The notes: generated by a model from the letters alone, not told the origin. 64,000 bases of DNA from Candidatus Omnitrophota bacterium (GCA_041650295.1 JBAZLM010000005.1:36592-100591); one strand, 5' to 3'; positions 10,971 through 48,300 are shown, counted from the first letter of the stretch. Numbers and translations are program-made.

Positions 10971-13900
10971 ATGTCGAGACACAAGCTGCCAAAAGTATTT
11001 TATCTGCTCATTAGTTTTCTATTAATCTTTGAGCAATCCGGCTTTGCCCAAGTGGCTGCTCAGCTGGATATCTCAGGCAAGCTGGCTGCTTTTGGCAACT
11101 CCATCACTGTAGAGAGGTTTAGGCCGCTACATTTAAGGTATCTACAGTATAACCCCCAAGACAACAACTTCCGCCTGTTAATTGATAAAGGTACCCTTAA
11201 AAACCCTTCAAATACCGATTTAGAACGTACTTCTAAGGAACTACTCAAATACTTCTTTATTGGTCTATCTTTACCTAATGATAAGTTCTGGGTAAACTTA
11301 AGACCAGATGCTGCTGATAGTATTATTGATGATAAACTAGCGCAAACCGATATTGGTCGCATTCTTTTAGAAGCTGATGTCCAGCTTAAAAAGGACACTG
11401 CCAACGCCACATCCCCAGAGACCGCTCAAGGCAAACTCTACTGGGATAAGCTTTATGCTAAAGCTGCAGAGTTATTCGGCTCTCAAAACATCACAATACC
11501 TACACTAACTAGACCCTGGATTGTTCCCGATGAAGTAATCATCCGCGAATCTACTGATTCAGCTTATGTCTACAAAGCATCATTAAAGGTGATGCTAGAG
11601 CAAGACTACCTAAAGAACAGCTCTACCTATAACTTCAAAGACGACCGCCTAAAAGCTTTAAATGAATACTCATCTCAATTAATCCGAGAACTAATTATTC
11701 CTAACCTAACTAAAGAGATCAACACCTCTAAACAATACGCACCACTACGTCAGGTATATTACTCTTTAATCTTGGCTCAATGGTTTAAAGCTCGTAACCA
11801 AACTAAAAACAATCCTTATACTAATTTAATTAACTCTCAGAACCTAACCGGTTTTACCTCTAAAACCCCATACTCTAAAGAAACTTACTTCAACCAATAT
11901 CAAAAATCCTTTAAAGACGGGGAATACAACATCCATACTCCAGTAACTACTCCAACTGGACAAGTAATTAGAAGTTATTTTTCGGGGGGAATGGCGTTTG
12001 GAACAATTTCTCCGATCCGTACTCCTGCCAATAATTCTACTGAAATTGCACAACCTTATGAAGCAAGAATCACGCTTCCTGCTACAGAAGCGCAACAAAA
12101 TGATAATCCGGTTTTTTTCACACCTACGCAAGCTACCGAAAAAATTAACCAGCTAGCAATTACTGGCGATCTACACAAGTTAAAAGCTTATGCCGAAAAA
12201 GCAATAAGGGGAGAGGTTAATCAAGATGAATATCTCCAAGGCTATGCTCAAGAATTAAAAATAATTACCGATATTTTATCTCAAACTCGCCCAGTGGATG
12301 AACTCAATCTTTTAGTTAATCAATTTGACGTAAAAATTAAACAGTTGGATATTTTACGTGCAATCACTGAAATTATTTTACAATTAGAAAATGGAAAAGA
12401 AGGAACAAGTAATCCGCAAAGACTTAAAGAACTACGGGAAGTTTTTATTAAATATCCGGAAATCTCTCAACTTCTTATTAATTATTTTGAAACTAGATTC
12501 AACCCAGAAAAAACTATTGATGCTCGCGGTGAAGAGGCCGGCCAAATTAGGTTAAAAATACTTAAACTAATCGAAGAGCTGGATGGACTTCCAGAACATA
12601 ATATTTTAGCTAAAGCTATCGGCATCTTAATTGCCACAATTAAAACCGACTACTACATTGAAAACAGAACAGAACTTTTCTTAAGAATCGACCCGCGAGC
12701 AATTGTCGCCTACGATGATTCTGGCGCGTTAATCCGCACGCCACCTTATGCACTTATCTGGGTACACGTGCCTTACGGAGCATTTGGGGCACACTCCAGA
12801 TATGCTGATGTGGCTAGAGGAGGCTTGAGAAGTATTCGACCAGAGAGAGTTAATTTATGGAATAAAGTGTTAACCGAATGCGTAGCGCTATCCTTTACGC
12901 AACATAAAAAACATATAGATATTTCAGAAGGCGGATCTAAAGGAGCATTCGTTTATCAAGAAGGCTTAAATTTTGTAGCCTCAGCATTGGCTTACGTTGA
13001 CGGTCTAACTAACTGTATGATTAACGATGAGCGTATTGCCGTTGCTTCAGGAAATATCACCATTGATCCATTAGAACTGGGACCTGATGAAGGAACCGCA
13101 GAATTAGTAGACGTAATTACCGCTTTAGCTTGGTGGAAAAATTTAGACACTTGGAGACTTTTAATCACCGGAAAATCAGCGGTTTTAGGCGGCATATCAC
13201 ATATGAAAAACAATTTAACAACTCCCGCAGTAATGGGCAACCGGGTTACTTCTCAAGGAGTAATGGCACATGCTTTTGAAACAACAAGATACTCACAAGA
13301 AAAAAATATTACCCCAAAAAATAAATTATCGCTCTCAATTACCGGAGGCCTAGATGGGGATGTTGCCAGTGGCCTAGTTGAAATCGCAATCCGTAATTAT
13401 AATGAAGATGTGGCTATACGTAGCTTGGTTGATTTTTCCGGAGTCATGTTTGATCCGGCTGGCCTTGATCACAGCGCTCTATTAGAGATGTATGCGAATG
13501 AATCACAAGCAAAATTATTTCCCAAAGAAAAACTGGGACCCGGAGGTTTTATTGCCGAAGCGCGCAAAGGCTATGCTGAAGAAAACTATACTACCTTAAA
13601 TACAGATTCACTAAAGTATCTAAACACTTATGCTTTAGATCCGCAAGTTTTAGAGAAATTAGGATTGGAAGCAAAATATAAAGAACAAGCCGGACTAAAT
13701 AATGATCAACCATTGATTATGGTTTTAGAAAGAGACAGTCAAAACAGACCATCAAAGATCAAAGTCCACGATGTTTATTTAAGAGACGCAATGTTCTTCT
13801 TAACCAAAGCTGATATGCTCATCACTGGAGGGGGAGTAAAGGACTCCATTAATGACCAAAATTGGGAGCTTTTCTTTGATCAAGAGGGCCGGCCAACTAC

Positions 13901-16900
13901 CCCGGCAATCGTTCATGGCGCAAATGTATTTACCACTAAGAATGCGCTAATTAATCTAGAAAAAAAAGGAATATTTATTGAACCAGATGAAAAAGCTAAT
14001 TCCGTAGGAGTAGAGATCTCCAGCAACGCAGAATTAAATATCAACAGCATTTTTAAACCAGCAGAGATTACTCCAGCAATAATGACTGCATATTTTAAAC
14101 AGGTTTTAGCTAATTCTTTAGAAAACGCTAGATGGAAATTTTTTGCTTTAAGAATAGAAAGCGAAGACAGACCTGAGCAAAGTGCTGCTACCGAAGTTTC
14201 TCCGACCATGTCTATGGAAATAACTGCCCTGGCAGATTTAATTTCAAACATGTTTAGCGACATCCGTAGCGGCTCTAATCCTGAAGCCATAGATCGATTA
14301 AAAAATAACTTTCCGGAATTAGACGCGCTTGATTCAAGCTACCCAACCACATTAGCTCGCCTGCTAGACCGCATGCCTCAAGCCCGGCTACAAGCTACAA
14401 TTTCAAAATTAATTGCCAAAGAGATTGTTTTAAATCTTGGAATGGGAACCGTTGCTCAACTGGCTAAAAATTTAAAAGTCGACCAAAAAGAAATTGTTCG
14501 TCTATATTTAATCGAAGCCGAAAAACTCGATATTTATGAAAAAGTAAAAGCAGTAATCGAAAATCCGCAAAATTTTACTCCTAGTGCTCAAATTAATAAA
14601 TTAAGAGAGTTACGTAAAGAATTAACCAATGCCATTGAACATTCTAAAACCGCGTTAGAAAAAGAGATTAATGATGCCATAGCTCCTTTTGAAAGTGGCT
14701 TAGCCCCAACTGATAAAATACATATCAAAGGTCTATTGAGAAAGTTTTTAATCGAAAAATATTCTGCATTAAAAAATGAACTTATACTCGGAGGTACTTT
14801 TATATCTGCAGCGATGCTCACTAAAAAACAAAGACAAGAACTATTGGGAGCAGAAAACTATGACCAAATTGCCAAAGACACAACTAATGAAGCTGCCGCT
14901 AAAGATACATATGTAATTTTTGACTCAATGGACGGTGGATTAGGTCAAAGCGTAGAACGAAAAAATTACCTTAAAATCAGAGAAGATACTGAAAGTGATT
15001 TTAAAGCTCGTCGTGACGAAAACAACAAAATCGCCTTAGGCGCCAAGGGAACTGACTTAGCTTATGATATCGAACTTAATGGTGAGCATTTTAAAGCCAG
15101 CGTCGCGGAAATTAAACTATTACACATATTGAGCATAACTCAACAATTCGGGAAAGTTACTTTCCAACCATTAGTAAACACCGATTCAGCTCCTTCTTAT
15201 GAAGCTTTACTAAATAGTACTTATCTTTTAGACAAAGCAGACAAAAATAAAACTGACAAAAGAACTTATCGTCAGGTTTTAGCTGAATATGGAATAACCT
15301 TGGACAAAACAAATGAGTTCCTCTACCAAGCTAATCTTCCAATCATTGAATATGATACTAATAAACTAACCAATAAATTTCCCACTCCTGGTGGCCATGG
15401 CCAATGGGGAGTCATGCTTTTAAGTGAGGCTAAAGATATTGAATTGCCTAAAGACGGCAAAACATTAATTCGGGCATTCTACAATGGTGATGGAATCGCT
15501 AATTTTCCAGATGCGGCAATCTTAGGTTGGATGGCTAAAAAGAAGATCGGAATTGTGATGATTTCAACCACAAAAGCCGGTTTAGATAAAAAGGGTGGCC
15601 AAATCGGAATTCAAATATTACCGGATGGCTCAACTCGGGTACAAATGTTAGAATTAGCCCAGGCAAAAAAAATCGGCAAAGCTCATGAACAATTATTTGC
15701 AGCTATCGGTTTACCGGGAGTAGACACAGTCGAAGGTGTTGATGCTCAAGGCAATCCTTATACCTACACCAATGAAGCCGGAGCCCAATACTTTAATACC
15801 AATATTGCTTTAATCAACTATAGTGTTTTATCACCGATTTTTAAGTCTATTTTAGAAATTAAAACTAAAGATATTGATTTCGAGGGTGAAAAGTTAACCG
15901 GAGCAGAGCTATTAGAAAGAATTGTTTCTCCGGATTTAATCGAAAATGTTAAAACCAGGGAAGACGGTAAAAATTATACTCAATTAGAAGGAGCAATTGG
16001 CTCAGCGCTACTTAACTGTAATGCTTTCTTTAGCGCAACTAAAGATCCCCGCATAAAAAAAATCCTTTCTGATGTAATTGGAGATAATAAACTTTTAAGA
16101 ATTGTCAACGTTGATGCTTCTCAAAGAACTAAATTTTTTACCCCAATAAAAAGTGCTTTCGATTACTGGTTCCAAAACTACTCAGACTATTATAAAATGG
16201 ATACTCAAAATTGGACATTAGTTGATGCAAGAGAAGGAGAAGAGCCTCCGCAAGTCGATATTATCTCTTACAAACTAGATAAAGATGGCAAAAAAGTTGA
16301 TGATAAATTTTATAGCGATGTCCAAAACATAATTAACTCTTTTGCTAAAGCATCTACAATTGAATTAAAATCCTTAAATATTGAAGGCCAAATTAAAGCT
16401 GAAAATGCCATTCTTAAGGGAAATATAAAAATTGTTAGTAGTTTCCCAGGAATTATTGATTTAAACAGCGAAGCCAGCCGTAAAGCTTTAAATCAATCCG
16501 GAACCCAACCATTAATCTTAAATAACGTTAGCATCTCTATTGATGATCAAGGCAAAATCACAATGGATGATACATCAGTTAAACCGCCTTCGGTTGGCTC
16601 AACCGGTGAATACGAAATTATGCAAGAAATAATATTAGAAGCCGAAAATGATTATAGTGCTAGCCGAATTGCTCAAGCGGCTCAAAAGATATACGACGGC
16701 TTATTAAGTATGGAAGAAGATGAATTTATTGTTAATCTACCGACTGCCATCAAAATTTTAGAGGCTACATATAATCCTAAATTCGCTCCCATGCTTGAAA
16801 TTCTAAATAATCTAGATAAAAAAGACCATTCAGGCCTAGTAGAAAAATTAAAGAAACTGAATAATGATAGCAGCGCTCGGACTAACGCCGGTGGTATTGA

Positions 16901-17264
16901 TTTCCGCACGCTGCCGATCGTATCCCAAGCCATTAGCAACTTAAGCACTAATATTAATCGCAGCTCAATCAACAGCTTAGCCAAAATTGACTTAAACAAT
17001 GAGTGGCTTGATATTGAAAAGTTAATTAACTCAGGGATTGTTCCTTCAACTAATCGAATCAAAGAATACGTCCAGGCATCTTGTGCTCAAGATAAAACTA
17101 AAAACTGTAAAGATAAGGTTATTAATGGTATCGCTGATATCTTGCGCCAAGAAGAAGATCTCTGTCAGCGCACCAATCCTAAACTTTTAGATATATTAGT
17201 TGTCCTTCAGGCATCTAGAAATAGTAACGAATTGAATCAGGCGTTTCTCGGCAAAGCTATATAA
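10971..17264 (+). CDS. secreted 2097-aa multidomain protein; N-terminal domain paralogous to the giant ORF at 33332; contains large-NAD-GDH-like and UDP-sugar pyrophosphorylase-like domains
   Basis: Signal peptide ending ...SGFAQ. The first ~330 aa align with the start of the 33332 ORF (e.g. FRPLHLRYLQYNP/FRPLELRYFSYNS, WVNLRPDA, EADVQLKKDTA, IPTLTRPWIVPDEVIIRES, VIRSYFSGGM). Downstream domains are described in separate findings. Confidence 0.9.
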   Translation: MSRHKLPKVFYLLISFLLIFEQSGFAQVAAQLDISGKLAAFGNSITVERFRPLHLRYLQYNPQDNNFRLLIDKGTLKNPSNTDLERTSKELLKYFFIGLSLPNDKFWVNLRPDAADSIIDDKLAQTDIGRILLEADVQLKKDTANATSPETAQGKLYWDKLYAKAAELFGSQNITIPTLTRPWIVPDEVIIRESTDSAYVYKASLKVMLEQDYLKNSSTYNFKDDRLKALNEYSSQLIRELIIPNLTKEINTSKQYAPLRQVYYSLILAQWFKARNQTKNNPYTNLINSQNLTGFTSKTPYSKETYFNQYQKSFKDGEYNIHTPVTTPTGQVIRSYFSGGMAFGTISPIRTPANNSTEIAQPYEARITLPATEAQQNDNPVFFTPTQATEKINQLAITGDLHKLKAYAEKAIRGEVNQDEYLQGYAQELKIITDILSQTRPVDELNLLVNQFDVKIKQLDILRAITEIILQLENGKEGTSNPQRLKELREVFIKYPEISQLLINYFETRFNPEKTIDARGEEAGQIRLKILKLIEELDGLPEHNILAKAIGILIATIKTDYYIENRTELFLRIDPRAIVAYDDSGALIRTPPYALIWVHVPYGAFGAHSRYADVARGGLRSIRPERVNLWNKVLTECVALSFTQHKKHIDISEGGSKGAFVYQEGLNFVASALAYVDGLTNCMINDERIAVASGNITIDPLELGPDEGTAELVDVITALAWWKNLDTWRLLITGKSAVLGGISHMKNNLTTPAVMGNRVTSQGVMAHAFETTRYSQEKNITPKNKLSLSITGGLDGDVASGLVEIAIRNYNEDVAIRSLVDFSGVMFDPAGLDHSALLEMYANESQAKLFPKEKLGPGGFIAEARKGYAEENYTTLNTDSLKYLNTYALDPQVLEKLGLEAKYKEQAGLNNDQPLIMVLERDSQNRPSKIKVHDVYLRDAMFFLTKADMLITGGGVKDSINDQNWELFFDQEGRPTTPAIVHGANVFTTKNALINLEKKGIFIEPDEKANSVGVEISSNAELNINSIFKPAEITPAIMTAYFKQVLANSLENARWKFFALRIESEDRPEQSAATEVSPTMSMEITALADLISNMFSDIRSGSNPEAIDRLKNNFPELDALDSSYPTTLARLLDRMPQARLQATISKLIAKEIVLNLGMGTVAQLAKNLKVDQKEIVRLYLIEAEKLDIYEKVKAVIENPQNFTPSAQINKLRELRKELTNAIEHSKTALEKEINDAIAPFESGLAPTDKIHIKGLLRKFLIEKYSALKNELILGGTFISAAMLTKKQRQELLGAENYDQIAKDTTNEAAAKDTYVIFDSMDGGLGQSVERKNYLKIREDTESDFKARRDENNKIALGAKGTDLAYDIELNGEHFKASVAEIKLLHILSITQQFGKVTFQPLVNTDSAPSYEALLNSTYLLDKADKNKTDKRTYRQVLAEYGITLDKTNEFLYQANLPIIEYDTNKLTNKFPTPGGHGQWGVMLLSEAKDIELPKDGKTLIRAFYNGDGIANFPDAAILGWMAKKKIGIVMISTTKAGLDKKGGQIGIQILPDGSTRVQMLELAQAKKIGKAHEQLFAAIGLPGVDTVEGVDAQGNPYTYTNEAGAQYFNTNIALINYSVLSPIFKSILEIKTKDIDFEGEKLTGAELLERIVSPDLIENVKTREDGKNYTQLEGAIGSALLNCNAFFSATKDPRIKKILSDVIGDNKLLRIVNVDASQRTKFFTPIKSAFDYWFQNYSDYYKMDTQNWTLVDAREGEEPPQVDIISYKLDKDGKKVDDKFYSDVQNIINSFAKASTIELKSLNIEGQIKAENAILKGNIKIVSSFPGIIDLNSEASRKALNQSGTQPLILNNVSISIDDQGKITMDDTSVKPPSVGSTGEYEIMQEIILEAENDYSASRIAQAAQKIYDGLLSMEEDEFIVNLPTAIKILEATYNPKFAPMLEILNNLDKKDHSGLVEKLKKLNNDSSARTNAGGIDFRTLPIVSQAISNLSTNINRSSINSLAKIDLNNEWLDIEKLINSGIVPSTNRIKEYVQASCAQDKTKNCKDKVINGIADILRQEEDLCQRTNPKLLDILVVLQASRNSNELNQAFLGKAI
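12480..14100 (+). other. large NAD-specific glutamate dehydrogenase (Bac_GDH)-like domain inside the 2097-aa protein
   Basis: Motifs RFNPEKT, VARGGLRSIRPERV (cf. ARGGLRWSDR), EGGSKGAF (catalytic Lys region, cf. VGAKGGF), ITGGLDGDVASG (dinucleotide-binding GG-DGD-G), HGANVFTTKNALINLEKKGIFIEPDEKANSVGVEISS (GDH C-terminal GANxF...ANxGGV motif). Confidence 0.6.
14900..15850 (+). other. UDPGP-family (UTP-glucose-1-phosphate uridylyltransferase-like) domain inside the 2097-aa protein
   Basis: VIFDSMDGGLGQSVERKNY (cf. LNGGLGTSMG nucleotide-binding loop) and PTPGGHGQWGV (cf. PGHGD) about 160 aa downstream. Confidence 0.5.
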
Positions 17265-24011: not shown

Positions 24012-24515
24012 ATGGCCTTTAAAAAGAAAATGGAAGAAAAAACTTTAGACGTCGATGCAGCAATGCAGGGAACCATGACCTTTAAGGATCCAGTAAATTT
24101 ACGAATCAATGGAAAATTTGAGGGAAATCTAGATACGCGTGGCAATCTTACAATTGGAGCCACTGCTATTATTAATGCTGATATTATTGGTGATAATATT
24201 ATCGTGGGTGGAAAAGTTAAAGGTAAAATCACTGCCCGCGAAAGACTAACGCTTTTACCGCAAGCAATTGTAGAAGGTGATATTTATCCGGCAAAACTTA
24301 ATGTTGCCGAAGGTGCGATGCTTCAAGGTAAATGCACTATGCTCCATGATTTTCTTAATTGTGAACAGTTATCAAAATATTTAGAGGTGGAATTAAACTC
24401 TATTATGGAGTGGGCCAACACCGGAAAAATTCCTGGAAATAAAGAAAATGAAGGTTGGAAATTTGAACGTAAAGCCATTGATAGTTGGGTAGCTGCAGGT
24501 AAAATCGGAAAGTAG
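24012..24515 (+). CDS. bactofilin-domain protein fused to excisionase-family HTH (HTH_17) DNA-binding domain
   Basis: 167 aa. Beta-helical bactofilin repeats (GKFEGNLDTRGNLTIGATAIINADIIGDNIIVGGKVKGKITARERLTLLPQAIVEGDIYPAKLNVAEGAML). C-terminal segment LSKYLEVELNSIMEWANTGKIPGNKENEGWKFERKAIDSWVAAG resembles excisionase/MerR-like HTH. Confidence 0.6.
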   Translation: MAFKKKMEEKTLDVDAAMQGTMTFKDPVNLRINGKFEGNLDTRGNLTIGATAIINADIIGDNIIVGGKVKGKITARERLTLLPQAIVEGDIYPAKLNVAEGAMLQGKCTMLHDFLNCEQLSKYLEVELNSIMEWANTGKIPGNKENEGWKFERKAIDSWVAAGKIGK

Positions 24516-33331: not shown

Positions 33332-36300
33332 ATGAAAACTAAAAATAGCAAAGCTAAAAGAATCTTATCGTTGGTTTTATGTTTCGGTTTAATTTTACAG
33401 CAAATGGGTTTTGCCCAAATCGCTAGCGAATTAAATATAGCCGGCTATTTGGCTAAGTCTAATGCCAATCTGGTCCAAGCCAAATTTAGACCATTAGAGC
33501 TACGCTATTTCTCCTATAACTCCTCAAATGACAATGTTAAGCTACTTGTAGACAAAGGAGATCAGAAAGAATTAAATAGTCTCCAGGTGCAAGAACAATC
33601 TAAATCCCTATTAAACTACTTCTTAATTGGTATCACTCTACCCAACAATACATTCTGGGTTAACTTAAGGCCAGATTCTGAAAACCAAATTATTGATCAA
33701 TATTTAGAGAAAACTGATATCGGCAAGATTATGTTAGAGGCCGACGTGCAACTCAAAAAAGACACCGCCAGATTTACTTCTCCGGAAACCTCTGAAGGCC
33801 GCGTCTACTGGAATAAGCTTTATAAAAAAGCCGAGCAACTTTATGGAACTCAAAATACCACTATTCCCACATTAACTCGTCCCTGGATTGTTCCTGGCGA
33901 AGTAATCATTAGGGAATCAAATGGTAGTGCTTATGTTTACAAAGCCGTGCTCAAGGTCATGTTGGAACAGGACTATTTAAAAAATTCTACCACTTATAAT
34001 TTTAAAGATGACCGCGCCAAAGCATTAAATGAATATTCTAGTCAATTAATTAAAGAGTTAATTATTCCTAATCTAACTAAAGAGATAAACTCTAGCAAAA
34101 GATACGCCGCATTAAGACAAGTTTTTCATTCGCTAGTTTTAGCACATTGGTTTAAATCACGTTTTACCGGTAAAAGCGGTAGCTACGCCGCCATGATTGA
34201 CACTAAAAATCTTACCAATTTAACTTCACAAACAACCTGGTCAAAAACTACTTATTTTAAACAATACCAAGAATCATTTAATAAAGGTGAGTACAACGTC
34301 CAAGAACCGGTTTATACTCCTAGCGGCCAAGTAATCAGAAGCTATTTCAGCGGTGGTATGCAATTTGGAATGAATATGAAATCTCCTCTTTCCCCAAAAG
34401 GAGAAATTGGGATAATAAGCACCGACAATCCGAATCCACCAATAACACCAGAATCAGTGGTGTTTACAAGTAACGATGGGAAGTCTTTAATCGAATCTAC
34501 AATTAACGAAAACGCCCGTTCTCAGGCACCTCCAGTTGTCCAAGCTCAAACTCCTGAAGAAGCAAAAGCAGTACGTTTAGCCGAGCTAGTTCAGTTTGCT
34601 CTGGATCTACAGACAAAGTATCATGGTAAAGCCACTACCGGTAAATTTACCATCTTCTCCGGTCCTCCAGGCGGTGGTAAGAGCTTAGCTTGGGACGGTT
34701 TTGTAAAGGTAATGTTAGAGGCTCTAGTAGCTAAGGGCCAAATTGTTATCGATCCTAAATTATCCAATGATGATAACCTATTTGCTTCCGGACTATTTGA
34801 TAAATTTATTCTTTTTCATACCCGAGCGATGCGTCCAGGAGAAAAACAGGGAGGAATTAAGGATAGTAGCGGAGTAATTCAATCAGGAAATTATTATTAT
34901 AGAACGCCTGAACATTTAGAAAAATTAAAATCAGAAGGTAAAATTATTATTACTTTAGTTAATAATCAACCTCAAGGTTTAGCCCTCTATGATTTTGAAG
35001 ATACCTATACATTTAACGGAGAAACTAACACTGCATTTGTTAGCGGCCTTGCCTCTAAATTAAAACAAGATAAAATCACTATTCTAGAAGGTGGCTTAGG
35101 ATGGTTTGATGAGTTAAATAATGTATTTAAAGATATCGAAACCGATGAACAGCTAAAAGCTACCTTTGAAGGAGTAGCTAATGACGGTTTAAACAGTATC
35201 TTCATCTGTCCATTTACTGATGAGCGGATTATGGAAATTGAAGATAATGTTCAAGTTGAATATGCTCGCGCAGATAGAGGATCTAAAGAAGGCTTAGCCA
35301 TACATCAAGCCGAATACGAAGAAGCTATTGCTATCAGAGGCAGGCTAAAAGCTAAATTAGAATCTCTCATTGCCCAAGGTTCTGATGCTTTAAAAGCAGC
35401 CCTACCACAACTTCAAACTCAGTTCTTTAATATGGACAAGCAGTTCATGTCAAAGGTAGAAGTTGCTCAAGAAGATGCCTTTGGCTATGTTGCCCCAGAC
35501 AAGATCACTTCAGAAGATGCTTTGAGAAAAGCCAGCTTCCAGGAAACAATTGCTAGAATTCATTCTCGTGAAGTAAAAGAAGCCAAGAGTGTTATTGAAA
35601 CTCTAACAAAATTAATCAATGCCGGTGATCTAGAAAAGATCCAAGAATATCTAAATGATGCCAAAGCAATCAGCAAAATACTATATGCTCCGGTTACAAA
35701 TGACGAGTTAATAAAACGTGCCGATGAAGCAGCCCAACAGGTTATCCGCCGTGTTGATTATCAATACATCCTGAATAATGTTTGGATTGTGGATGAAGCA
35801 GAACGTAATATCTTTCAACGTGATTTAGGTGCAAGATTTGCTGAAGATGCCATCGGACCATTAAAAGGAAGGTTTGCTCCGGGCAAGAGTCCTGCTGATG
35901 CATTACAAGTTATTACACAGTCACAATATTTACAGGGTCTTCTAAAGGAAATAGGCTATTTTACATTAACGGATTATTTAAAGGCTTATGCAGAAGAAGC
36001 TCCAAGCTTAGGATTTGAACCTTTGGCTAAGTATCCTAGAACAACGGCTAAACGTGATTTATATACAACTAAAAATTCATTAGTTAATCAAGGAGTTTTA
36101 AGAATAAAAAATCCAGGAGTTAAAGGAGCGCCTTATGAATTTATACTCACAGAAAAAGGTGCCCAAGCTATTTTAGCTAAAGAAGAACAAAAGACCAAGT
36201 TAATTAGTAATTTTGTTACAGTATTAAATAATTATTTAAATAAACACGATTCTAGTAATCCATTAAGTACAAACAATCCTTTTCAAACAAATAATAATCA

Positions 36301-39300
36301 AGGGCCAATTAATTCTCCAGCGATTCCTCCTGCTCCTGTCTCTGCTGGACCGTTAGGGGCGGTGGTGGGTGGAATGGGTGGCCAAACTGCCAGGGCTAGT
36401 GCTTCTTCTGCGATTCATGAAAGAGAAAATTATTTAGCCAGAGCTGAAGAGATGGCTAAATTGATAGATCAATTAATAATTAGATCAAATAATAAAGTAA
36501 ATCCAATTTATACAGGAACAGATCCTCCTGCCGGTAGCATGGGTAGTTCACTCCCAGACTATATCCATGCGTTAATTATGGGAGAAAAAATGTTTGGTGC
36601 TTTAGTAGCAAATGTTTCAAGTAGTGAAGCAGATGCAGCAAGAAATGCAGTTGGAAACTTAAAATTTATGGCGAGCAGGCCAACAGTGGCTGCTCTCCAT
36701 AAATTCCTAAGCGTTGCCAATAGAGCCAAAGGTGCGGCGAAATTTAGCCAAATCCCAGGTTCTATTCGTGCGTATGGCTTCCGCGCCAAGTTTGTAAATG
36801 CCCTCAAGAAGTTAATCGTTATTCCTCAATTAAAAGATCTGGGTAACTCTGAATGGAATGAATTTAAAGGGAATAATCCTACACTTTTAGGTAGAATTTT
36901 TGGTTTTTGTGCAAATGATTTACGTCATTTATTTGGCAAGAACAAGAAATCATCCGATAAAATTATAATTCCGTCAGATGTCAGTCCGGATACTAGGTTG
37001 ATATTAGAACAGTTGCAAAGGATGAATGATAAAATCAATGATGTAAAAACAATAGCTGAAGCCGCAGCAGAAAAAGCCGAAGCCGCTAAGGATTTAAATG
37101 ATAAGTTAAAACACAGATTTGATGATAAATCAAAGTTGCCTTTTGATGATTGTGTTATCGGGATGTGCTATGATTTACTTTATGAAAAATTCTCACCGAA
37201 AAAAGTAGAAGCGCTGGTAAACGAGATTGATAAAGAATTTCGAAAAATAACTGGCATAAAAACCGGTAGTTATGAGGTCCCTAATTTAAATATTTTAGTT
37301 AATGTATTTAAGAATGTAACTGGCCTTGATTTAAAAATTCATAAAGTGAATAAGAATGCTCTTGTTGATTTAGTTCAAAAATATCCCGCTGAAATTGGTT
37401 TAATTGCTAAGCTTCAAAATGGTAAGCATCATGCTTTCACTGGCATGGGTTTAACTGATAAGGGAAATATTCGAATTATGCAAGAGAACTCTGGAGATTT
37501 TAAAGCGGCTCAAGAGATCTCGATTAATAATTTACCAGAAGAAGTGATAGTTGTTACACTTGCTACTTTAAAAGATCAGCAGCTTATTTTAAGTAAAGAG
37601 CTTACTGAAAAAGAGAGAAAAGAAATTAAGGAGATCGGTGGAATAACAGCTGGAGCAGAGGCTGGTACAGGGTCTAGTACAGCCACAGGGGCAGCTGCTG
37701 GAGTGGGATTAAATGGAGCAGCTAGTTCTAATAAAGGTAATGGTAGAGCTGATGGTGGTCAAATTAATCAATCAGTAGTAGGTCTTAGCGGTTTAAGCAT
37801 GACAGGAAATTTAGCGATAAACGTTCCGCAGGTTTCATTCTTTAATCATTTAGGGGCAAATGGTATTCGCGGATCACCGTCATTAACTACAAATCTGATT
37901 AATTTGTTCCGCACTAATTTTGCTACTATTAAAATAGTTGCTCCTAAACTAACTACAAATTTTGCTAAAATCCAAGCCTCTGTAAAATTAAATTACAATA
38001 AAGGTATTAACGCGGCTAGAACTCATTTCGTTAGATCTAGCGATAAGAATGTACGACTAAATAATCCCATCTCTAATACAGAAAAGAAGGCTAGCGCAAC
38101 TGATAATCAGCCGGCGATGGTTAACGTTAATGGCAAAAAAGTTATTGATGGTGACCTTTCGAATAGAACCATTAATCCTAATGACTTAAATAAAGTTGGA
38201 AAGACAAATGAAGAGATTTCCATAGCTACCTCTTCTGATTTAGCAAATAATAATATTCGTGCTCCTCCGACAGTTGCCGCTAAAATTACAAAAATCATTC
38301 GCTCAGTTATTGTTTTCCTCGCTACGGTTATTTCAATTATCTCTGTTACCACTCTGCCAGTTTTTGCGTTAAATAACAACTCTATTGTTACCGGACTTAA
38401 ATCAGCAAACATAATCATGTTTGTGATTGCTGCTGTGATAATTCCTACAAGGATTATTAAAACGACTATTGCTGAAAATAAAGCGGCAAGATATGGTTTT
38501 AGAACGATAGAATTTGATGCTACGGGTAAAAAGTATCTTAAATCGTTAAAAATTCGCGAAGTTAGAAATAATAATGAAAATGGTCAAGCACCGGTTGGGA
38601 TAGCAGTTGTTTTTGCAGCTATTGCGATTATTGGTGCATTATTCTGGCATTATGCGGCTTTTTCATTAGCCGATTTGATTGGCCTGGCTGGAATAGCAAT
38701 TTTTGGTATTGTAGCTATAGCTGCTTTTATCGGTAGCGTAGCAATGGAAAGTGTAGATAATAAAACTGCCGCAGATTTTGGCCGCAAAGTAATTAAGTTT
38801 GCCACGGTTGGTATTGTATTTTTTGGAGCACTTTATTTATTTGCTACTGCTAAAATTCCTGCTGCAGTAGAAGAGGCTATCCGTAACAGTTCATTACAGA
38901 GAGTATTTGATTTCTTAACTGTAAAAATAGGTGGCGGATTAACTGCACCTTTAGTTTTTGGAGCGGTATGGGGAAATTTAAATAATCAGGATCAGCCTTC
39001 TGCAAAACATCAGCCAAGCAATTCTTTACCGGCACAAAAAATTAATCATCATTATTTCAAAAAGATTATTGCTAAGTTATTTGGTTTAAATCATAAAGTA
39101 GCTCCTGCTAAGAAAATTTTACCTGTTTCCAACACCCAGATAAATAAAAATAAAATTTTAGTAAATGATCAACTAGGTCTTGGGGTAACTAATTTTGCCA
39201 AGGCTCCTCCGGTTAAGAGTCCGATTGTGTATTCAGCAAAAACAATTAACTCAACAGTTAACGGAGGAAAAAATGGTAAACTTACTAAAAATTCAAGAAT

Positions 39301-42300
39301 TCAAAGAAACAATGGCCGAATTAGACAATCAGTACAAAATCAGAAGATTGCAAGAGATGCGACAGGTAGCAGTGCTAGAAATGTTAAATCTGAAAAGCAT
39401 GCTAGCAGAAAAACCAGCAAATTAAATCGTTTTTACGCTTGGTTAAAACAGCCTAAAATAGCCAAGTGGGTTAAACTATTAATCGTAGCTAGTTTAATTG
39501 GAGTGGCAACCTTAGTTTTTGCTACCCCGGAGATGGCGGCCAGGGTAAGTAGTATAAATAATGAAGCCATAAGTAACGCAGCGTACTATTTAAGTCCAAA
39601 GGTATTTGTAAAACACGCTATATTTTTTAGTTTTCTGATCTGGGTCAACCGCAGGGGTTATATATTCTTTCCTACATTCGCTTTCTTGTTCGGGATGAAT
39701 CAAGCCAGTCATTTAAATCTAAGATTAATCGGTACACCTTTCTTTATGAATTGGTTCTATAATTGCCTAGATGTTGCTTTATATGCTAGCTTAATATTAG
39801 CTTTTATTGAGTTTTCTAAGGCTGCTAATAAAATAGAGCATTGGGGTAGAGAAACTATTGGTATTTGGCCGGTAAAGATTAAAACAATTGCCAAGGTTGC
39901 GTCTTTCTTTTTCGTAGCTTTAACCGTGCAAGAATTAATGAGCGCAATGTCGTTTACCCGTTTTATGTTAGAAACTTTTTATACTGCGCAAAAGCTCACC
40001 TTTGATCCTTACGATATCCTTGCGTATTTAGGAGGAGGTGTAGCATTTTTCGTCTTAACTAGCATAATGTCAATTTCTAGGCGCCAAGCATTTATTCGAA
40101 AAAATCAGTTAAAGAAAAACAGTGTTAGAATGCAAAAAGATCAAAATAAGGATAATAAAAATAATTTTTTAACAGAAAAGAGAGCGATTCCTGAAGATAA
40201 TAAAACTACTACTTTACATAGTTATGTGTCGGTAGCGGTAATACCTTCAATTGTATTATCGTTAAGTTTTTTTGACGTGGCAGCTAATATCAGCGCTGCT
40301 TTTGTTGCAGTTACGATTGTTGGTGTTATTGGTTGGGGTATTTATCGGTTGGGTAAACTTATTCATAAAATCCTTATATTAAAAGCTAATTCTAAACAGG
40401 ATTTAAATAATGCTTTTGACGATAAAAATGACCCAGCCCGTCCTTTACCTGGTCAGCCGATGCCTACGAGAGAAGAAGCAAACACCGAAGTAGCTAGACA
40501 TGATTTAACGCAATTTGAAACAATTTCCGAAGATCGAGCGGAAGTAAAATTAGCTATAGAATATTTACGTTCGATTAATGAAAATCAATTAGCTCATTAC
40601 TTAGAATATTTAGCTAAAGCCGGATTAATTCGTGCTGGACCATTAGCCGGCTTCTTAGCTACTACTTATATTTTAGATCAAGATAATGATTTTATTCTCC
40701 TGTCCAATCTCTACCCTGCAGAGAATAGCGTTTCAGATTATGCCGCAAGTTTAGTTCATGAGATCGGTGCCATTTTTAAATTCAATCATCAAGAAAATCA
40801 GACACGAGAAGATAATTTCTATACTTGGTTAGCGGCCAAAGTACTTGAGCCGAATTTTGGCGCTGTAGTAAATACTCGTCTTACAACCGAGGCCGCTTCT
40901 GATAATTTTGTTGCCGATAAGAAAGCGCTTCCTTATAATTTCTTCTTCTCAAAATCGAATCGTTCTCGTGGCAATATTTTACCTGCCACTAAACCTTATC
41001 CTGATGCTAAACAATTACACCGCAATCATTCCCCAAAATATCTTTACAAAGATATCAAAGGCAAAGTTAAAGTGTTCTCTATTAAAGACCAGTCGATTCC
41101 TAAATCACAACACGCAGCGGTTCAAGAGATCAATGAAGAAGAGTTAGTGCAATTAGCATTAACCGGCGGATGGAAGGTAGTCGTAGCTAAAGATTATGAT
41201 CAGATGACTTATGCTTCTTTATATTTAGTGATTAAACTTATGCATCTGGCGCAAAGAGAATTTGCTATGGGGTTGGCTACCGGCGGCACCACAGAGTCAC
41301 TGCGCAAGGCGATGGGGTTACTCGATTATAGCCGCAAGATCTTAGATGGTCTTTCTCTTCCTGGGGATAAGGTAAATAAATGGTCTACCTTAGATAACTA
41401 TTATTGGAATAAGCTTGCCGAGATGATTGATGTATTGCTTTCTAGTTACACTCAGGAGCAGGGGTATATGCTTTTAGGGAATATCTATGGTAAAGATAGA
41501 ATAAACTATGATTATTTTGTTACGCCTTATGATAAAACCGACTTAAGTTTAGAGCAGGTAGCAGAAAATTTCCGCCTGCGCATGCGGGTATTTTTAAATG
41601 AGACTTATAGAATATTGGTGCAGTTGCACGGCATTGGTTCAGACGGCCATGATGGTTTTAACGAGATCTATCCATCAATGCCTCTTTTACGTCCAGATTA
41701 TGATTCTGAGCTTTTAGATATTACCAAAGTTCAGAATATCGGTCATTTCTTACCCAAAGGTTTTCATCCTTTCTTTTTAAGATTTATGGCGGATAATAAA
41801 ATTTTTTATATGTCTAGACTCATCGATGTTTTAAATCGTATGGGTTTTGAAAGAATCGCCGGGTATTATCCAGAGTCTAAATACCAATTTGCTTCAGAAA
41901 AAGAGTATCTAGATGAGGTAAAATATCTATTAAAATATTTTAAACTTACTCCGGCTCAGTCGATTACTCAGGGCTCAGGAGATATTCTTGAAAGGACCAA
42001 TAATCCGGATTCTTTAAATCTCTACATGAGTTCAGGAGCGCATAAAGCTACTCCGACTTATGATGCGGTTGAAAAAGAACCGTCTTTATACAATACTGCT
42101 TCTGCTATGCAGCTACAGGCTAATTCTATACTTATTGTAACGCTAGATGCCGCAGTAAAACTTGATCAAAGTAAATGTTTCTTCTTTGTTCCTCAGGCTT
42201 ATAATCCGCTTTTAGTTAGTGCCAAAGCCATTGAAGAGACTTGGCAAGAGACTGCTGAAGGCAGAAGGATCCATGCATTATTAGAAGAGAAGCATGGCAA

Positions 42301-45300
42301 GCATTCCTATCCGGCCACTATGCCAATAACCAATAAAGCAGATAAAGCTCCTACTCCTAGACAATTTAATAAAATTCTGCAGGCTCTTGGTGGAGAGCAA
42401 GCTTTAGCCAGCAAAGGAATAACTTTAAATATAAATAATGTGGTAATTAGCCCAGCATTAGAGGCTCCGGCGGAAGTCAGAGCAGGAGTATTATACGTTA
42501 ATCCTAATATCTTACGTGGTCCTCCGAAACAATTACGCGTAATCTTTGAAGGACATGAACTACTCCACTTAATTAATCCTACCGCTACTGAACAAAGAGT
42601 ACAGATATCTACAATTAATTACTTAGTAAACCATCATCGTCTTAATGCCCACATTAAATTTTTAAATAAGAATAAATTTGGTTTGAGAGCAGATATTACA
42701 TGGTTAACTACTTTAAATTTAAAATCTAAAGAAACAGCTGCTTCTAAAGATATTAAGTTTGAAAGGCTAGCCAAAGAAGATCTGCGATCTATGGCTAAAT
42801 ATTTAAGTCCTATTCTTGCTTTTGGTATCGTATTGTGTGTTGTGCCAGAAACTATTCTCGGGGCTTTAATGGCAATTCCTTTTATCGGTCTAGCAGTTTG
42901 GCGGTTAGTATTTCCTACTAATTGGCGCTTATGGACAGTAGCTACACTTAATTGCACAGATCGTCATTATCAAATTGCTTATAATAAACTCATTAAAACT
43001 AAAAATAAAAGAACAATTAAAGCATTAATTAAATGTTTAGAGGGAAAAAATTTAAATACTTGTTTAATTGCAATTAATATTCTTGGCAAAATTTATTCTG
43101 TAAAAACAAAAGCTAATAAATTTGATCAATTAGTAGTTTTATCTTTTATTGGCTTGGCACATAAGCTGTTAAATCCAAATGAAGAGATGTTTGCCTATTC
43201 TCGTTTTAGTATCTTTAAAACTATTATAAATACTTTATCTGTTTGGGTAGATACAGAAAAAACAATATTTGAAAAATCTAGTAATGAATATTTAGCAATT
43301 TATGAATTTTTTAGTAAATTCTTAGCTTCTAATGAGACAATACAAAATTCTGGATTTGAATTTTTAGCTTTACGGGAATTCTGTAAAAAATTTCCGGATC
43401 AGACGCCAGCTCATTGTGTTAGTAATTTAGTTAATTACGTTCTCGTTGGCAGTCCAACTGATCGTTCTGCTAATGGCGTCAGTACTGAAGAGGTGGAAAA
43501 GGCCATCGCCAAATTTGGTGGAATAGAAGAAATCTTAAAGCGAGAAATTACTAAATATACTGACTATATTAATATAATTTTTGGAATTAATATAGTAGAG
43601 CAAAAATTAAAGATTTCTTCAGAGATTATAAATTGTTTAATAGCTGCTTGTGGGGTACATTTTGCGCAAGCTCCTCCAGAATGGCATATCGGTGCTGCTA
43701 TTGGAATTTGTAAGCGTGAAGGTAAAGAAGAGCCAGTAATTATTATTACACAAGCAACTTCTGCCGATGCTATTGCTCATGAAATTTGCGCGATCTTAAT
43801 CCCTGGCTTAACACATGAAGAAAATTTAATAGTAAGTAAAAGAGTTAATTGTTCATTAGCTGCTTATGACTCTACCAATGCATTAGACAATTCTTTAAAA
43901 GGACGAGTAGAAAAAGTCTCAGGGGCTTTGGCTAGACTCTATAATCTGGATTCTCGTGAATTGCGCAATGTGCTTAATTTGGCTCCGGCTTGGGAGAAAG
44001 TTTTTAATGAAGAGATTCTTCCGGAGATTATTGATGGATATCTGCAGTATTTATCCTCTCCAAATGATAAAAAGCCTGCAGCGGTAGTTTTAATTACCGG
44101 AGAAGGCGGAATCGGTAAAACTACTGTAGCTTTGTCCTTTGATGAGATTGCGGAAGCGGCTTTAAAAAGAATTCGTGATGAAAAAAAATTATCAAGACAA
44201 TCAAATTTAGTAAGAGAGATTGCTTTCGATGATTATATTTTACAAAAAAACGATCGCCAAATTGATCCGTTAACTGGAGTTGCTACTGAAGATCCTTTTA
44301 AAAAATTCGAGTATGATCGTTTCTTAAAAGATATGCTAGCTTTGAGGCAAGGACAAACTATTTATAAGCCAATTTATGATTTCAATCTGCGTGGTCGACT
44401 TAAATTTGCTCTAAATCAAGAAAATCAGATAGTTTTAATGGTGGGTAATGAAGAAATTTTAGTTGGGGTTAATGTAGAAACCCAAGAGCCGTATTTCTCT
44501 TATCAAAATAAGCAGCAAGATTCATTAATGTTGGGTACTAATGAAATTAAAGTTGAGTTAAAAATATATCGTAATACTGAAAATAATATTGTTATTAATT
44601 TGCGAGACAGCGAGCATGTTTTTCGATTTGATGAAAAAGGTAAAGTTAATGTTAATGTTGGGGATGTTACACAAGTTTTAGAAAAAGGTAATTTAGTTGA
44701 AGCTTTGGAGATGATTGTTCCGCAGGGAAAAGTTTATATCGTTGAAGGTATTTTGGCTTTACAAAGCGATAAATTAAACGCTAAGTGTTTAACGGTTTAT
44801 ATTACAGGAGGTTTTGAGGCACGACTTTTACGTATGCTTAGCCGTTCGATGGGTGAAAGTGGAAGAAAGAACACGATTCAGGAGTTAGTTGAGCAACGTT
44901 TAAGATTAATAAAACTTGAAGAAATGCCTTACATTTGGCCAGTGAAAAAGAAGGCCCGTTGGGTAGTTACTAGTTTTAGTCGTTCAGAAGCTGTTTATAT
45001 GCTTTATATTCGTGGTCAACTAAATTGTCCTAATAAGAGAATAGTGCAAATTTTAAAAAGCTTAGGAGTTGATTGTCATGCACTAGTTGATGCATTGAAG
45101 AATATTTATCAGAATGAGGTGGCGGCTCGCTTAAGCGGTGGGCAGGGAATTCCTAGTGCTATTGAAGGAACAGCCTTTCATGTTTTTATGGATAATTGTG
45201 GTTTAGTTATAAAAGTGCCCCGCGCTGAATTTTTAAAGGAATTTGAAACAAATTTTATTAAGTTTTATAATACAGTGCTTAAAACTAGATTAGGTGGATT

Positions 45301-48300
45301 GATTGTTCCAGGAACAATTATTGATTTAAATAAGCTAGGTGTGGATATTAGCAGAGTAGTTGACGGTGATTTTTATAAATTTGAAAAGGTTCTTATTCAA
45401 AATAAAGTAGTAACGCTTGGTCAAAGATTAAATGATCTCTTAAAGGTTCAAGATATAGAGGGAGTAAAGAAATTAATTGATCAGTATTTTATTTTGCAGC
45501 AAGCGCTTTGGCGAAGGGGTGTTTGGGACAATAAGCCTAAGTTTATGGAGAAATATGGTTTTATTCCTTTAGATGGAGTAGAACAATTAGTGGTGGTTGG
45601 GGTTGATGGCTTAAAAGATAGGATAGAAGAATTTGATCCTACTTTATATATGAATAAAGATTTGCGTCCGCAAAATCTGCCGGCAGAATTAGAAGATTAT
45701 TATGATCTGAAGGTTAAGGAGATGATTTTTAGTAAAAATGACTTTTTAACTTATTTTGCCAGTGGATTGAAAGAGTGTCAAATGGCTCCAGATATTTCGG
45801 ATATTGAAATTGGTCGTAAACAAATGGATCATATTGTCACTACATTAAGGCAAGCGATGTTACAAAAATATCGTAAATTTTTTGGTTGTCTTAATTATAG
45901 TAGGGATAATCCGCTAATTTATTGGATAAAGTTTTATGTGGATACAGTTTATGCTAAAGGGGTAGCGCAGCAAGTTTTGTTAAATGCTTTTTATGAACAA
46001 GTTATTGAAGATCCCCAGATGTTAGATGAAGTCTCTAAAACTACTAGCAAACTTCAGGAAAAACTTAAAGAATTTAATCATAACGGTCTAGTCAGTGATT
46101 CCGGGCTTTTAGTGATGGCTGAAGAAATGCTTTATATTAAGAATGAATTTAATCATCAGAAAACGGATTCAACTGTTGGCGCTTTAGTGGGTGCTCAAAC
46201 TAAGACAACTGAAATTACCAATTATAGTGTTGAATTAGTATCTAAGCCAAAAATTACATCTGAAGAAATTGAAAAAATTCTATCAACTATGCGCGGTATG
46301 GCGGATGCGATGGCAGTTTTATGTACCGGTATTGAAGGATCTACTTATAAAGATGTTCCCGGTTTGCTTATTGATATTCAGAAAATGGAAGAACTTTTTG
46401 GGATTATTGCTGAGCGTGTAAAATCTACGGATAAAAATTTTGCTATTCATCCGGAGCTAGTTAATATTCGCGTGGCGGATGATGCTTTGGAAACTGTTCC
46501 TTCTTTAGAGGCATTAGAGACAGATCTCAAAGTTGGTATTTATCCGATTGCGGCTAATCCGATACATCTATCGCATATATTAGTTGGAATCGAAGCGATT
46601 GCTATTGGCAAGTGTGACGTGGTTTATTTTGATGTTCAATCCGGTGGGTATGTGCTTAAACCGATTTTAACCGCGACTGAAAAATATCGATACGAATTAA
46701 GTATGATACTTTTAGCTTTACTTGCTCCGTTCTTTGGTTTTGCGATAAATATTTCTAAAGACGGCGAAACGGATATTTTTAGAATTCAGAAGCTTAACCT
46801 TAATCAGAAAAGGGTTAAGTATGTTTATATTGTAGGTAGTGATCATTATCATCGGTGGGTAGAAAAAGACGCTTCGGATAATTTAATTCGGGGAACAGAA
46901 GAATATAGGCAGTATGTTTTAGTGCACAACGGCAAAGAGCCGACTCCGGATACAATTCAGAAGATGGAAGATAAATTAGTTGAATTTGGGGTGGATGCTT
47001 CGGAACTGGCCATATTATTTGTGGAGCGCATCGGTGAAGAAGCGCAAGAAACAATTGCTAGTTTATTAGATATCAGCATGCTTCCTCCGGTCGGGATGGC
47101 TTCTTCTACGGCGATTCGTAATGCTTTCAAGGCAATTGAAAGAATGACTAAGGATGAAGGCAATTTAAGCGCAGTGGAATTAGCAGAATTGCAAAAAGAT
47201 TTATTGAAAGGGTTAATTTATCTGCCGTATGTTAGCTACCAGTATATTATCGACCATTTGGATTATTTAGATATGCTGGTGCATCCTGAGGAATATGATG
47301 GGAGCAAGCCGGCTGATCGTGCGGCTAATGGCGCAAGTGCTAAAAGAGTTGATGCGGCTATTAATGATTTTGGTGGAATAAATGAAATTTTAAAGAATGA
47401 AATTAAGGATATTCTTTATGATAGAAATATTATGTTAGGTATTAATAAGGCGGCCTATAGCATGGATCAGGATCCTACGGCAATATATAGCGCGTTGATT
47501 GCGCGAGGAGTACATTTTGCTCAGGCACCTCCGAATTGGAAAATTGGCTCAGCCATTGGTATCTTAGATAAAGATGGAAAAATAGAATTGGTAGTTATCC
47601 TCTCTAAAGATGCAAATCCTGAAGAAGTTGCCCATGAAATCCGCGCTGTATTAATTTCAAGCTTAACTCACCAAGAAAATCAGTTATTAAGATCTAGTGA
47701 CAAAGTAGTTAAGAATATGTTTACTCATTCGATTGCTTTTCGTGGCTTGTTAACTCCCGAAGAAGACGCTGCCGTTGAATATTTTGATGACCCGATTAGC
47801 CCAGCTAAAAAAGGAGCAGTTCCCCTAAGCACACTTAAAGAGTATTCAGCAGCTGAAGAAATTATTTTTAACATCAAAGATATTGAATTAAAGAATCATG
47901 GTGCGCTGATACTTAATGAAGATTACCTGAAAAAATTTCATATTTATTTCTATCAGACTACTAGTAGTCCATCGCCTAATGCCAGCGTTGATTTTCAATA
48001 TATGAATATTTTTGTTTTTGCTAAATCTGCAGAAGAACTCAACGCACAGATTATTGCTAAAATATTAGTGCATGAATTAGTTGAATATGTTTTGGTTGAA
48101 CATTACTTAACAAATAATCAGTCAGCTAATTTTTCTGTAGCGCATCAGCAAGCCCTAGCAACAGTTAAGGATCTTGATGCCTTTATTTTAGCGAATAAGA
48201 AAACGAATAATTCTAGTGAAGCGCAATCACTATCTGATAAATTGATAGGTCAAAATAATGGCGCGGTAGTAAATACCTGTGGTAAAGATTTTCCTGTGAT

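Follow-up and report, generated by a model that had tools for sequence, protein, structure and literature searches.

Analysis of a 64,000-nucleotide stretch of Candidatus Omnitrophota DNA (GCA_041650295.1, JBAZLM010000005.1:36592-100591; hereafter the window) revealed two members of a protein family with a head-cargo-tail architecture, in which a consensus signal peptide and a conserved N-terminal head are followed by variable cargo and a conserved C-terminal tail. This architecture is widely distributed in a single phylum, with multiple paralogues per genome, and spans a size continuum from ~540 to >10,000 amino acids (aa). The first member, here named p1, is the 2097-aa protein encoded by the open reading frame (ORF) at 10971-17264, and it is laid out as signal peptide, head, linker, glutamate dehydrogenase (GDH)-like module, UDPGP-like module, linker and tail. 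Contigs in ENA and Logan, with Candidatus Omnitrophota as their annotated source, contain its exact sequence. The second member is a giant ORF of at least 10223 aa, whose frame, starting at 33332, is still open at the window end. On balance, we lean towards the interpretation that these proteins belong to one Omnitrophota family built on a fixed head-cargo-tail chassis that is exported by Sec and whose ends act as sorting or anchoring parts.

The original prediction for this region held that the N-termini of the 10971 and 33332 ORFs are homologous. A BLASTP comparison of the first 400 aa of each protein agrees with this claim, returning 219 identities over 356 positions (62%, with 78% positives and E 6e-166) and placing the homologous part at residues 1 to ~340 in both proteins. 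All the sequence blocks quoted in that prediction (WVNLRPD, EADVQLKKDTA, IPTLTRPWIVP, YVYKA.LKVMLEQDYLKNS.TYNFKDDR, EYSSQLI.ELIIPNLTKEIN and VIRSYFSGGM) are found in the alignment, and GFAQ does end both signal peptides (aa 24-27 in p1 and aa 26-29 in the giant ORF). The prediction had itself named a similarity restricted to the signal peptide or to compositional bias as the case that would refute it. Alignment without the signal peptide yielded 65% identity and the global alignment score of the head pair lies 63 standard deviations above that of 200 shuffles, indicating a similarity that is not a product of composition and does not stop at the signal peptide. At the DNA level, the two heads are 63% identical, their longest exact match is 14 nt and the same codon is used at only 48% of identical residues. 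The low DNA identity, short exact matches and differing codons point to old paralogues under purifying selection, rather than to a recent duplication or an assembly artefact, and recent gene conversion between the two heads was likewise rejected by the nucleotide comparison.

A tblastn search detected exactly two head copies in the window, in line with the earlier statement that the family is present at least twice within 22 kb. Outside the heads, BLASTP found no further similarity between p1 and the part of the giant ORF that the window covers (10223 aa). The complete downstream divergence originally described hence stands for the visible sequence, but it cannot be checked at the C-terminus, since the giant ORF leaves the window and the C-terminal ~125 aa of its relatives are conserved.

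The alignment of family heads (A1) contains 46 invariant columns, and the AlphaFold2 model of the head (predicted local distance difference test [pLDDT] 84, predicted template modelling score [pTM] 0.77) outlines a mixed alpha/beta domain with three beta-hairpins packed on about eight helices. Searches of the head and of the tail described below against Pfam (also at E<=10), NCBIfam and the PDB (by sequence profile) returned nothing beyond noise, and the best Foldseek match of the head model in the PDB, to NheA (E 0.19, TM-score 0.12), was rejected as insignificant. A profile built from 41 heads was scored against 1.84 billion cluster representatives. It identified 7739 proteins (50%-identity clusters) at E<=1e-3 and 6415 at E<=1e-30, with cargo differing between members, as expected for a family combining a constant head with variable catalytic cargo. 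Each of the 150 listed profile hits contains one head copy, at residues 1 to ~345/350, and the head starts within the first 20 residues in all of them but one (P0136, residues 61-406). The 142 new representatives range from 609 to 7391 aa in length (median 1414), and the smallest known family members measure ~540 aa (537-609 aa range).

Species-representative genomes contain 454 head-encoding stretches, and the best 80 of these include up to four per genome. A word-indexed homology search with the head produced 405 matches, whose named sources are almost always Omnitrophota/Omnitrophica or just "bacterium". Since this search only lists proteins no longer than ~1.75 times the query, the short lengths of its hits are a product of the tool and were not taken as evidence of stand-alone heads. 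A few head records carry other phylum labels, which are unconfirmed, and a phage origin of the head family was discarded given only 2 matches in 2.9 million viral contigs. Overall, the head family is found almost only in the Omnitrophota, with several copies per genome.

Two further features of head sequences were observed outside the window. Four homologues in alignment A1 (P0074, P0091, P0072 and P0062) contain inserts of low complexity, placed in two or three separate surface loops per protein and with a recurring peptide (e.g. GLSPEGLPAGRQGTVP), a pattern reminiscent of a repeat element that enters coding sequence in frame. In addition, locus L034 contains at 8181-9446 a divergent head-like stretch (40% identity) with no signal-peptide region, beginning one base past an ORF of >2723 aa and located directly upstream of a regular family gene, which may correspond to a tandem or degenerate copy.

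A second conserved module, not seen in the original prediction and new here, defines the C-terminus of the family. BLASTP comparison of p1 devoid of its head with the head-bearing ORFs of 80 loci matched only the last ~125-170 aa, always at the very C-terminus of the other ORF (42 ORFs). The consensus of this tail reads GGIDFRxLPIVxQPM…NLDxEW…GIxPSxERIKEY…CIADILRLEEE. The description of the family as a constant head with variable cargo was therefore accurate as far as it went, but missed this conserved tail. Tails were detected in 121 of the 262 proteins collected, lying no more than 25 aa from the C-terminus in 115 of them, and in 13 of the 14 members of at least 3000 aa, up to a length of 7391 aa. 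Nearly all family members that are complete end in this module. Within the 80 loci, 43 tails lie inside head ORFs and seven more downstream of interrupted head ORFs, and no tail was found without a head. In all seven apparent tail-only cases, a head ORF split into successive ORFs on one strand is situated a few kb upstream. In these split loci (L005 1058-6815, L034 9923-13407, L026, L033, L046, L056 and L072) the head and tail ORFs are parted by a stop or a frame change, an arrangement that may reflect pseudogenes, sequencing errors or a true split of the gene. For the giant ORF, the tail status lies beyond the window end.

The minimal members of the family (537-609 aa) encompass only the head, a linker of ~100 aa and the tail. 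In the AlphaFold2 model of one such protein (P0013, 589 aa), residues 315-467 are disordered and the tail, with pLDDT ~80-88, opens with a short strand at GGIDFR and continues as five helices. The model attains a pTM of 0.65 although 192 of its 589 residues have pLDDT <50, and it presents a beta-bridge at head residue ~295 that is absent from the head-only model. These features are weak hints of a possible docking of head and tail into one body.

The N-termini of the family are consistent with export. A small-x-small-Q motif was identified at 287 of 313 intact family N-termini, in 210 cases as GFAQ, and a rule-based check of the same set revealed an n-region charge averaging +3 and a hydrophobic run of ~12 aa. 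Both p1 and the giant ORF start in this manner, with a basic stretch, a hydrophobic run of ~12 aa and GFAQ. Family N-termini thus display the positive n-region, the 10-15-aa hydrophobic region and the small residues at -3/-1 that characterize substrates of Sec and signal peptidase I, a pattern that suggests a cleaved signal peptide, too short for a stable anchor. A Kyte-Doolittle scan detected no hydrophobic segment in p1 beyond the signal peptide, and none in the cargo of 120 of the 141 representatives scanned. Cysteine content is 0.29% in p1 and averages 0.26% in the cargo of these 120 members. For comparison, 10 soluble cytoplasmic proteins encoded in the same window contain 0.9-2.5% cysteine, the exported CtpA 0% and the membrane-anchored LepB 0.5%. 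Taken together, the consensus Sec signal peptide, the lack of any other membrane helix and the cysteine depletion suggest that p1 is exported.

The giant ORF appears to be organized differently. A crude hydropathy scan, which does not fix its topology, identified ~16 candidate transmembrane segments from aa 1649 onward, and its first 3000 aa contain 0.23% cysteine, against ~1.1% in the remainder. The switch, around aa 3000-3200 (~nt 42300-42900), is located near a hydrophobic pair at aa 3153-3193. The cysteine jump and the transmembrane segments suggest that the N-terminal part of this protein lies outside the cytoplasm and that later modules, including a radical S-adenosylmethionine (SAM) module, lie inside, with a possible topology switch between the two. 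The original claim of secretion would hence apply to the giant ORF only in its N-terminal part, up to about aa 3000.

The cargo of p1 consists of two enzyme-like modules. The first exceeds the Pfam gathering cut-off for GDH_HM3, Bac_GDH_CD (38.6, cut-off 22.8) and ELFV_dehydrog (51, cut-off 23.4), with GDH_C remaining below it. It contains the GDH-like motifs ARGGLR (aa 615), identical in the Mycobacterium smegmatis GDH 7a1d, and GGSKGAF (aa 654), whose aligned counterpart in the same enzyme is the lysine-containing segment AKGGF. By analogy with other GDHs, the lysine of GGSKGAF is presumably the catalytic lysine, a role that the alignment alone does not establish. The second module matches UDPGP with 36.8 bits (cut-off 22) and presents the motifs DGGLGQS (aa 1321), PGGHG (aa 1473), NGD (aa 1505) and DKKGG (aa 1539). 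The last three align to the UDP-glucose pyrophosphorylases (UGPases) 3gue and 4m2b, and the glycine-rich loop is altered to GGLGQS. The two modules are thus GDH-like and UDP-sugar-pyrophosphorylase-like, their activity being predicted from sequence. As in the large NAD-GDHs (Bac_GDH, 7a1d/7jsr) and UDPGP enzymes, they pass the Pfam gathering scores and keep the signature motifs; unlike the characterized enzymes, to which they are 26-30% identical, they form a fusion of the two, preceded by a signal peptide and flanked by head and tail.

No orthologues of the whole p1 architecture were found, and none of the other head-bearing proteins examined carries this GDH-like and UDPGP-like cargo. The closest relatives of the GDH-like module (P0263-P0276; eight without a source name and three labelled Omnitrophica) share 35-58% identity with it and lack both head and tail. 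Twelve of these 14 proteins start with a signal-peptide-like hydrophobic N-terminus of a different kind from that of the family. This also speaks for export, and it raises the possibility that exported enzyme modules have heads of other types. The N-terminus of these relatives is often followed by a shared "TLAP…" motif.

Pfam matches in the giant ORF include a phosphoribulokinase (PRK)/uridine kinase, a NUDIX domain, an acetate kinase (E 2e-109), a radical SAM domain with SPASM, HEAT repeats, phosphoglucomutase/phosphomannomutase (PGM/PMM) domains I-IV and a starch-synthase-type glycosyltransferase of family 5 (GT5). Pfam scans of 54 other family members, in two sets, broadened this repertoire with methyltransferases, HEAT repeats, DnaJ, FHA, metallophosphoesterase, guanylate kinase, HD, GH94, ABC1 kinase, low-molecular-weight phosphatase, M48, M23, NUDIX, phosphoribosyltransferase and ARMT1 domains. 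Any given Pfam family was found in at most two members per scanned set, with Methyltransf_25 occurring in three across both, and much of the cargo sequence received no annotation.

The favoured interpretation of these data can be laid out as follows. The chassis comprises, in order, a predicted Sec signal peptide with a conserved cleavage site between GFA and Q, a head of ~315 aa, a flexible linker, the variable cargo, a second linker and a tail of ~125 aa. Since minimal members consist of head, linker and tail, and larger members carry cargo in between, the simplest reading is that cargo was inserted into the linker of an ancestral head-tail protein. The precursor would be exported by Sec and cut by signal peptidase I, leaving a Gln at the new N-terminus, and, given the absence of any other membrane helix in p1, its GDH-like and UDPGP-like modules would come to lie beyond the cytoplasm. 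Later parts of the giant member would be threaded back by transmembrane segments, so that only roughly the first 3000 aa may lie outside. Head and tail would constitute the constant sorting or anchoring parts, which may dock on each other and would either be recognized by machinery encoded elsewhere or bind the cell envelope. A likely purpose would be the surface coat or the host/prey interaction proposed for ultra-small, epibiotic or predatory Omnitrophota, with a partner cell, its interior or the contents it releases as the target of the cargo enzymes.

Several observations weigh against this interpretation. Head and tail lack an informative fold match, and their putative sorting role is argued from position and conservation; of the "secretion/anchoring head" originally proposed, the family and the position of the head are borne out, and the secretion or anchoring function remains presumptive. 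Clustering of 517 flanking ORFs from 80 loci did not reveal any recurrent secretion, chaperone, transporter or partner gene beside family genes, implying that any handling machinery is encoded elsewhere. Cysteine depletion is not decisive, as the large GDHs of actinobacteria are cytoplasmic and equally cysteine-poor (0.27%), and the signal-peptide and transmembrane calls stem from simple rules and not from a trained predictor. Furthermore, enzymes dependent on NAD, UTP, ATP or SAM, as well as DnaJ and FHA domains, normally need cytoplasmic cofactors and would be awkward outside the cell. Lastly, the C-terminus of the giant ORF lies outside the window.

Alternatively, the head, and perhaps the tail, could be catalytic or self-processing, cutting or ligating the polypeptide or modifying an envelope polymer, in which case the ends would share an enzymatic function. 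We deem this unlikely. The head does contain a dense set of polar residues that are invariant across paralogues with unrelated cargo (R56, N109, R111, D136, K140, D142, R181, E210, D212, D224, N231, N251, R260, Q261, S265 and K273), the tail opens with an invariant GG-x-D that could mark a processing site, and cleavage of giant proteins into smaller polypeptides has been raised as a possibility (10.1101/2023.11.21.568195). However, the head presents no invariant His or Cys, no recognizable catalytic constellation and no fold or sequence match to any enzyme family, and polar residues can equally form a binding interface.

Less probable again is that the N-terminal segment is an uncleaved anchor, or is not used for export, and that the cargo forms a membrane-tethered, cytoplasmic multi-enzyme scaffold. 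Such a scaffold would suit cargo enzymes of cytoplasmic type, which need NAD, UTP, ATP, SAM or Fe-S clusters. It would also accord with the 46% of long Omnitrophota proteins that have transmembrane helices and no signal peptide and have been read as residing on the cytoplasmic face (10.64898/2026.06.07.730766), and with the later part of the giant ORF, cysteine-rich from ~aa 3000 on, which looks cytoplasmic and contains the radical SAM module. Yet the ~12-aa run, the +3 n-region and the small-x-small motif are of the cleaved Sec type, too short for an anchor, the positive-inside rule places the head outside, and cargo without transmembrane segments is strongly cysteine-depleted relative to cytoplasmic proteins of the same genome.

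Two-partner secretion (TPS) provides a further candidate mechanism. TpsA exoproteins, such as FhaB, ShlA and CdiA, carry an N-terminal TPS domain. As in the family described here, very long and variable exoproteins are headed by a signal peptide and, directly after it, a conserved domain of ~300 aa, and multiple paralogues could share one transporter. The head might hence be a functional analogue of the TPS domain, recognized after Sec export by an outer-membrane transporter of the Omp85 type that threads the passenger out. We attach only a slim chance to this scenario. The head does not match the TPS domain (Pfam Haemagg_act) even at E<=10, and its model is mixed alpha/beta instead of a beta-helix; no TpsB (Omp85/POTRA) gene was found in the window, nor was such a transporter a recurrent neighbour in the 80 loci. 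Moreover, TpsA proteins have no conserved C-terminal tail, and the cargo of the family consists of globular enzymes and not beta-helical repeats, folded globular cargo being atypical for the pathway. Finally, the notion that the head similarity is trivial (chance, low complexity, a shared signal peptide only, recent duplication or an assembly artefact) is virtually untenable in the light of the E-value of 6e-166, the z-score of 63 against shuffles, the 65% identity that remains once the signal peptide is removed, the DNA comparison (63% identity, no exact match beyond 14 nt) and thousands of independent homologues in public data, and nothing was found in its favour.

The giant proteins of the Omnitrophota are a recognized puzzle. 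They include the "Archaeovorin" class, whose domain repertoire has been published (10.1101/2023.11.21.568195, West-Roberts et al. 2023). In that catalogue, 46 Archaeovorin-type genes exceed 90 kb (~30,000 aa), with numerous transmembrane regions, and their domain set encompasses glycosyl transferases, methyltransferases, radical SAM, NUDIX and HEAT domains, with a divergent SecA DEAD helicase in most of them (10.1101/2023.11.21.568195). A 2026 preprint describes the same sugar-metabolism module as that of the giant ORF (10.64898/2026.06.07.730766). Surface or predatory roles have been proposed for Omnitrophota giant proteins (10.1101/2023.11.21.568195; PMC10066038), and published surveys report that their N-terminal regions generally contain no identifiable domains (10.1101/2023.11.21.568195; PMC10066038; 10.64898/2026.06.07.730766).

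The giant ORF shares with the Archaeovorins the phylum, a signal peptide and the GT5, radical SAM/SPASM, NUDIX, HEAT and PGM/PMM domains, and its domain repertoire fits these published giants. It has ~16 candidate transmembrane segments in the 10223 aa inside the window, past whose end it continues. No match to SecA_DEAD was detected at E<=0.01 in aa 1-10000 of the giant ORF, the rest of which extends beyond the window. Unlike the Archaeovorins, p1 has neither their size nor their number of transmembrane segments, and contains none of their domain set. No description of the conserved head and tail, or of a continuity between giants and proteins of 540-3000 aa, was found in the accessible literature. 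As a more tentative extension of the favoured interpretation, which we regard as possible but doubtful, head and tail might be two halves of a recognition or anchoring device for an Omnitrophota-specific route of export, surface display or prey delivery. The Archaeovorins would then represent the extreme of a single modular effector family that carries folded enzymes of cytoplasmic type, be it as single modules or as giants of 10,000+ aa, out of these ultra-small cells and takes up new cargo between its constant ends.

Other secretion systems also present partial similarities. Like type IX secretion system (T9SS) substrates, members of the family start with a Sec signal peptide and end, behind unrelated cargo, in a C-terminal module that is conserved, and they have Gln at +1, as in the Bacteroidetes Q-rule, by which Gln comes first after the predicted signal-peptidase cut (PMC5837995, PMC10653852). 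Gln at +1 is absent from the other exported proteins of the window. However, the family tail is helical and not a beta-sandwich C-terminal domain (CTD), it matches no T9SS CTD model in Pfam or NCBIfam, and the T9SS is a Bacteroidota system. Polymorphic toxins and MARTX likewise join constant trafficking parts with swappable enzymatic modules and occur as many paralogues with different payloads. In contrast, the family described here has both ends constant and the middle variable, and carries metabolic and signalling enzymes with no recognized toxins; neither an immunity gene nor an autoprocessing protease or repeat region turned up in the Pfam scans and neighbourhoods.

Giant Omnitrophota proteins were already known, and what appears to be new is the chassis that unites ordinary-sized proteins with at least some of the giants. 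Head and tail are absent from Pfam and NCBIfam, and the two-ended chassis appears to be undescribed in the accessible literature. The conserved ends provide a sequence handle to find, classify and delimit proteins of this family, including fragments from broken assemblies, and link the giants to experimentally tractable relatives of ordinary size, with minimal members of ~550-600 aa. The common ends also point to a common handling step, be it export, anchoring or delivery, and the repeated insertion of enzyme modules into one linker would constitute an evolutionary route to giant genes. Should the cargo indeed work outside the cell or inside prey, the family would represent, for nanobacteria with an epibiotic or predatory life, an extensive catalogue of metabolic enzymes that are exported. 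The coordinates of the features discussed are compiled in Table 1.

Table 1. Coordinates of the two family members and their component modules in the window.
Feature	Position (nt)	Strand	Basis
p1 (database protein P0197), complete gene	10971..17264	+	ORF list, translation; 2097 codons open
p1 signal peptide, Sec-type, aa 1-26 (MSRHKLPK / VFYLLISFLLIF / EQSGFA), predicted cut between A26 and Q27	10971..11048	+	rule-based
p1 head domain, aa 27-340, ending in IRSYFSGG	11049..11990	+	62% identity to giant-ORF head
p1 cargo 1, large NAD-glutamate-dehydrogenase-like, aa ~443-1270	12297..14780	+	Pfam GDH_HM3, Bac_GDH_CD, ELFV_dehydrog
p1 cargo 2, UDPGP-like, aa ~1321-1805	14931..16385	+	Pfam UDPGP, PDB UGPase alignments
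p1 tail domain, aa 1974-2097, GGIDFRTLPIV motif followed by helical bundle	16890..17261	+	conserved C-terminus across head-bearing ORFs
Giant ORF with second head copy	33332..64000	+	no stop in 10223 codons
Giant-ORF signal peptide, aa 1-28, predicted cut between A28 and Q29	33332..33415	+	rule-based
Giant-ORF head domain, aa 29-342	33416..34357	+	BLASTP to p1 head, alignment A1

The genes surrounding both members in the window are ordinary chromosomal genes, encompassing lepA, lepB, pgsA, plsY, gatCAB, ctpA, tsaD, tilS, a bactofilin gene and Wood-Ljungdahl accessory genes. Across the 80 loci analysed, the sole recurrence in the neighbourhood of family genes is a housekeeping synteny, gyrB-gyrA-glmS-rsmI, located upstream in 15-18 of them, which marks one orthologous position of one family paralogue. 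Loci at this position include L009, L014 and L015, among others, in genomes labelled Omnitrophota.

Two large proteins, both unannotated, are encoded in the window immediately upstream of the p1 gene. The first (4540-7509, + strand) has 989 aa, of which 0.3% are cysteine, and includes a signal peptide and a single TPR repeat. The second (7525-10725, - strand), transcribed divergently, has 1066 aa and no Pfam match. At 24012-24515 (+ strand), a bactofilin domain and an HTH_17 DNA-binding domain are joined in one protein, an unusual combination, and a separate small HTH_17 gene follows. Lastly, the coding strand of the giant ORF maintains a strongly positive GC skew (~+0.15 to +0.32) at 44000-64000, far above the rest of the window.

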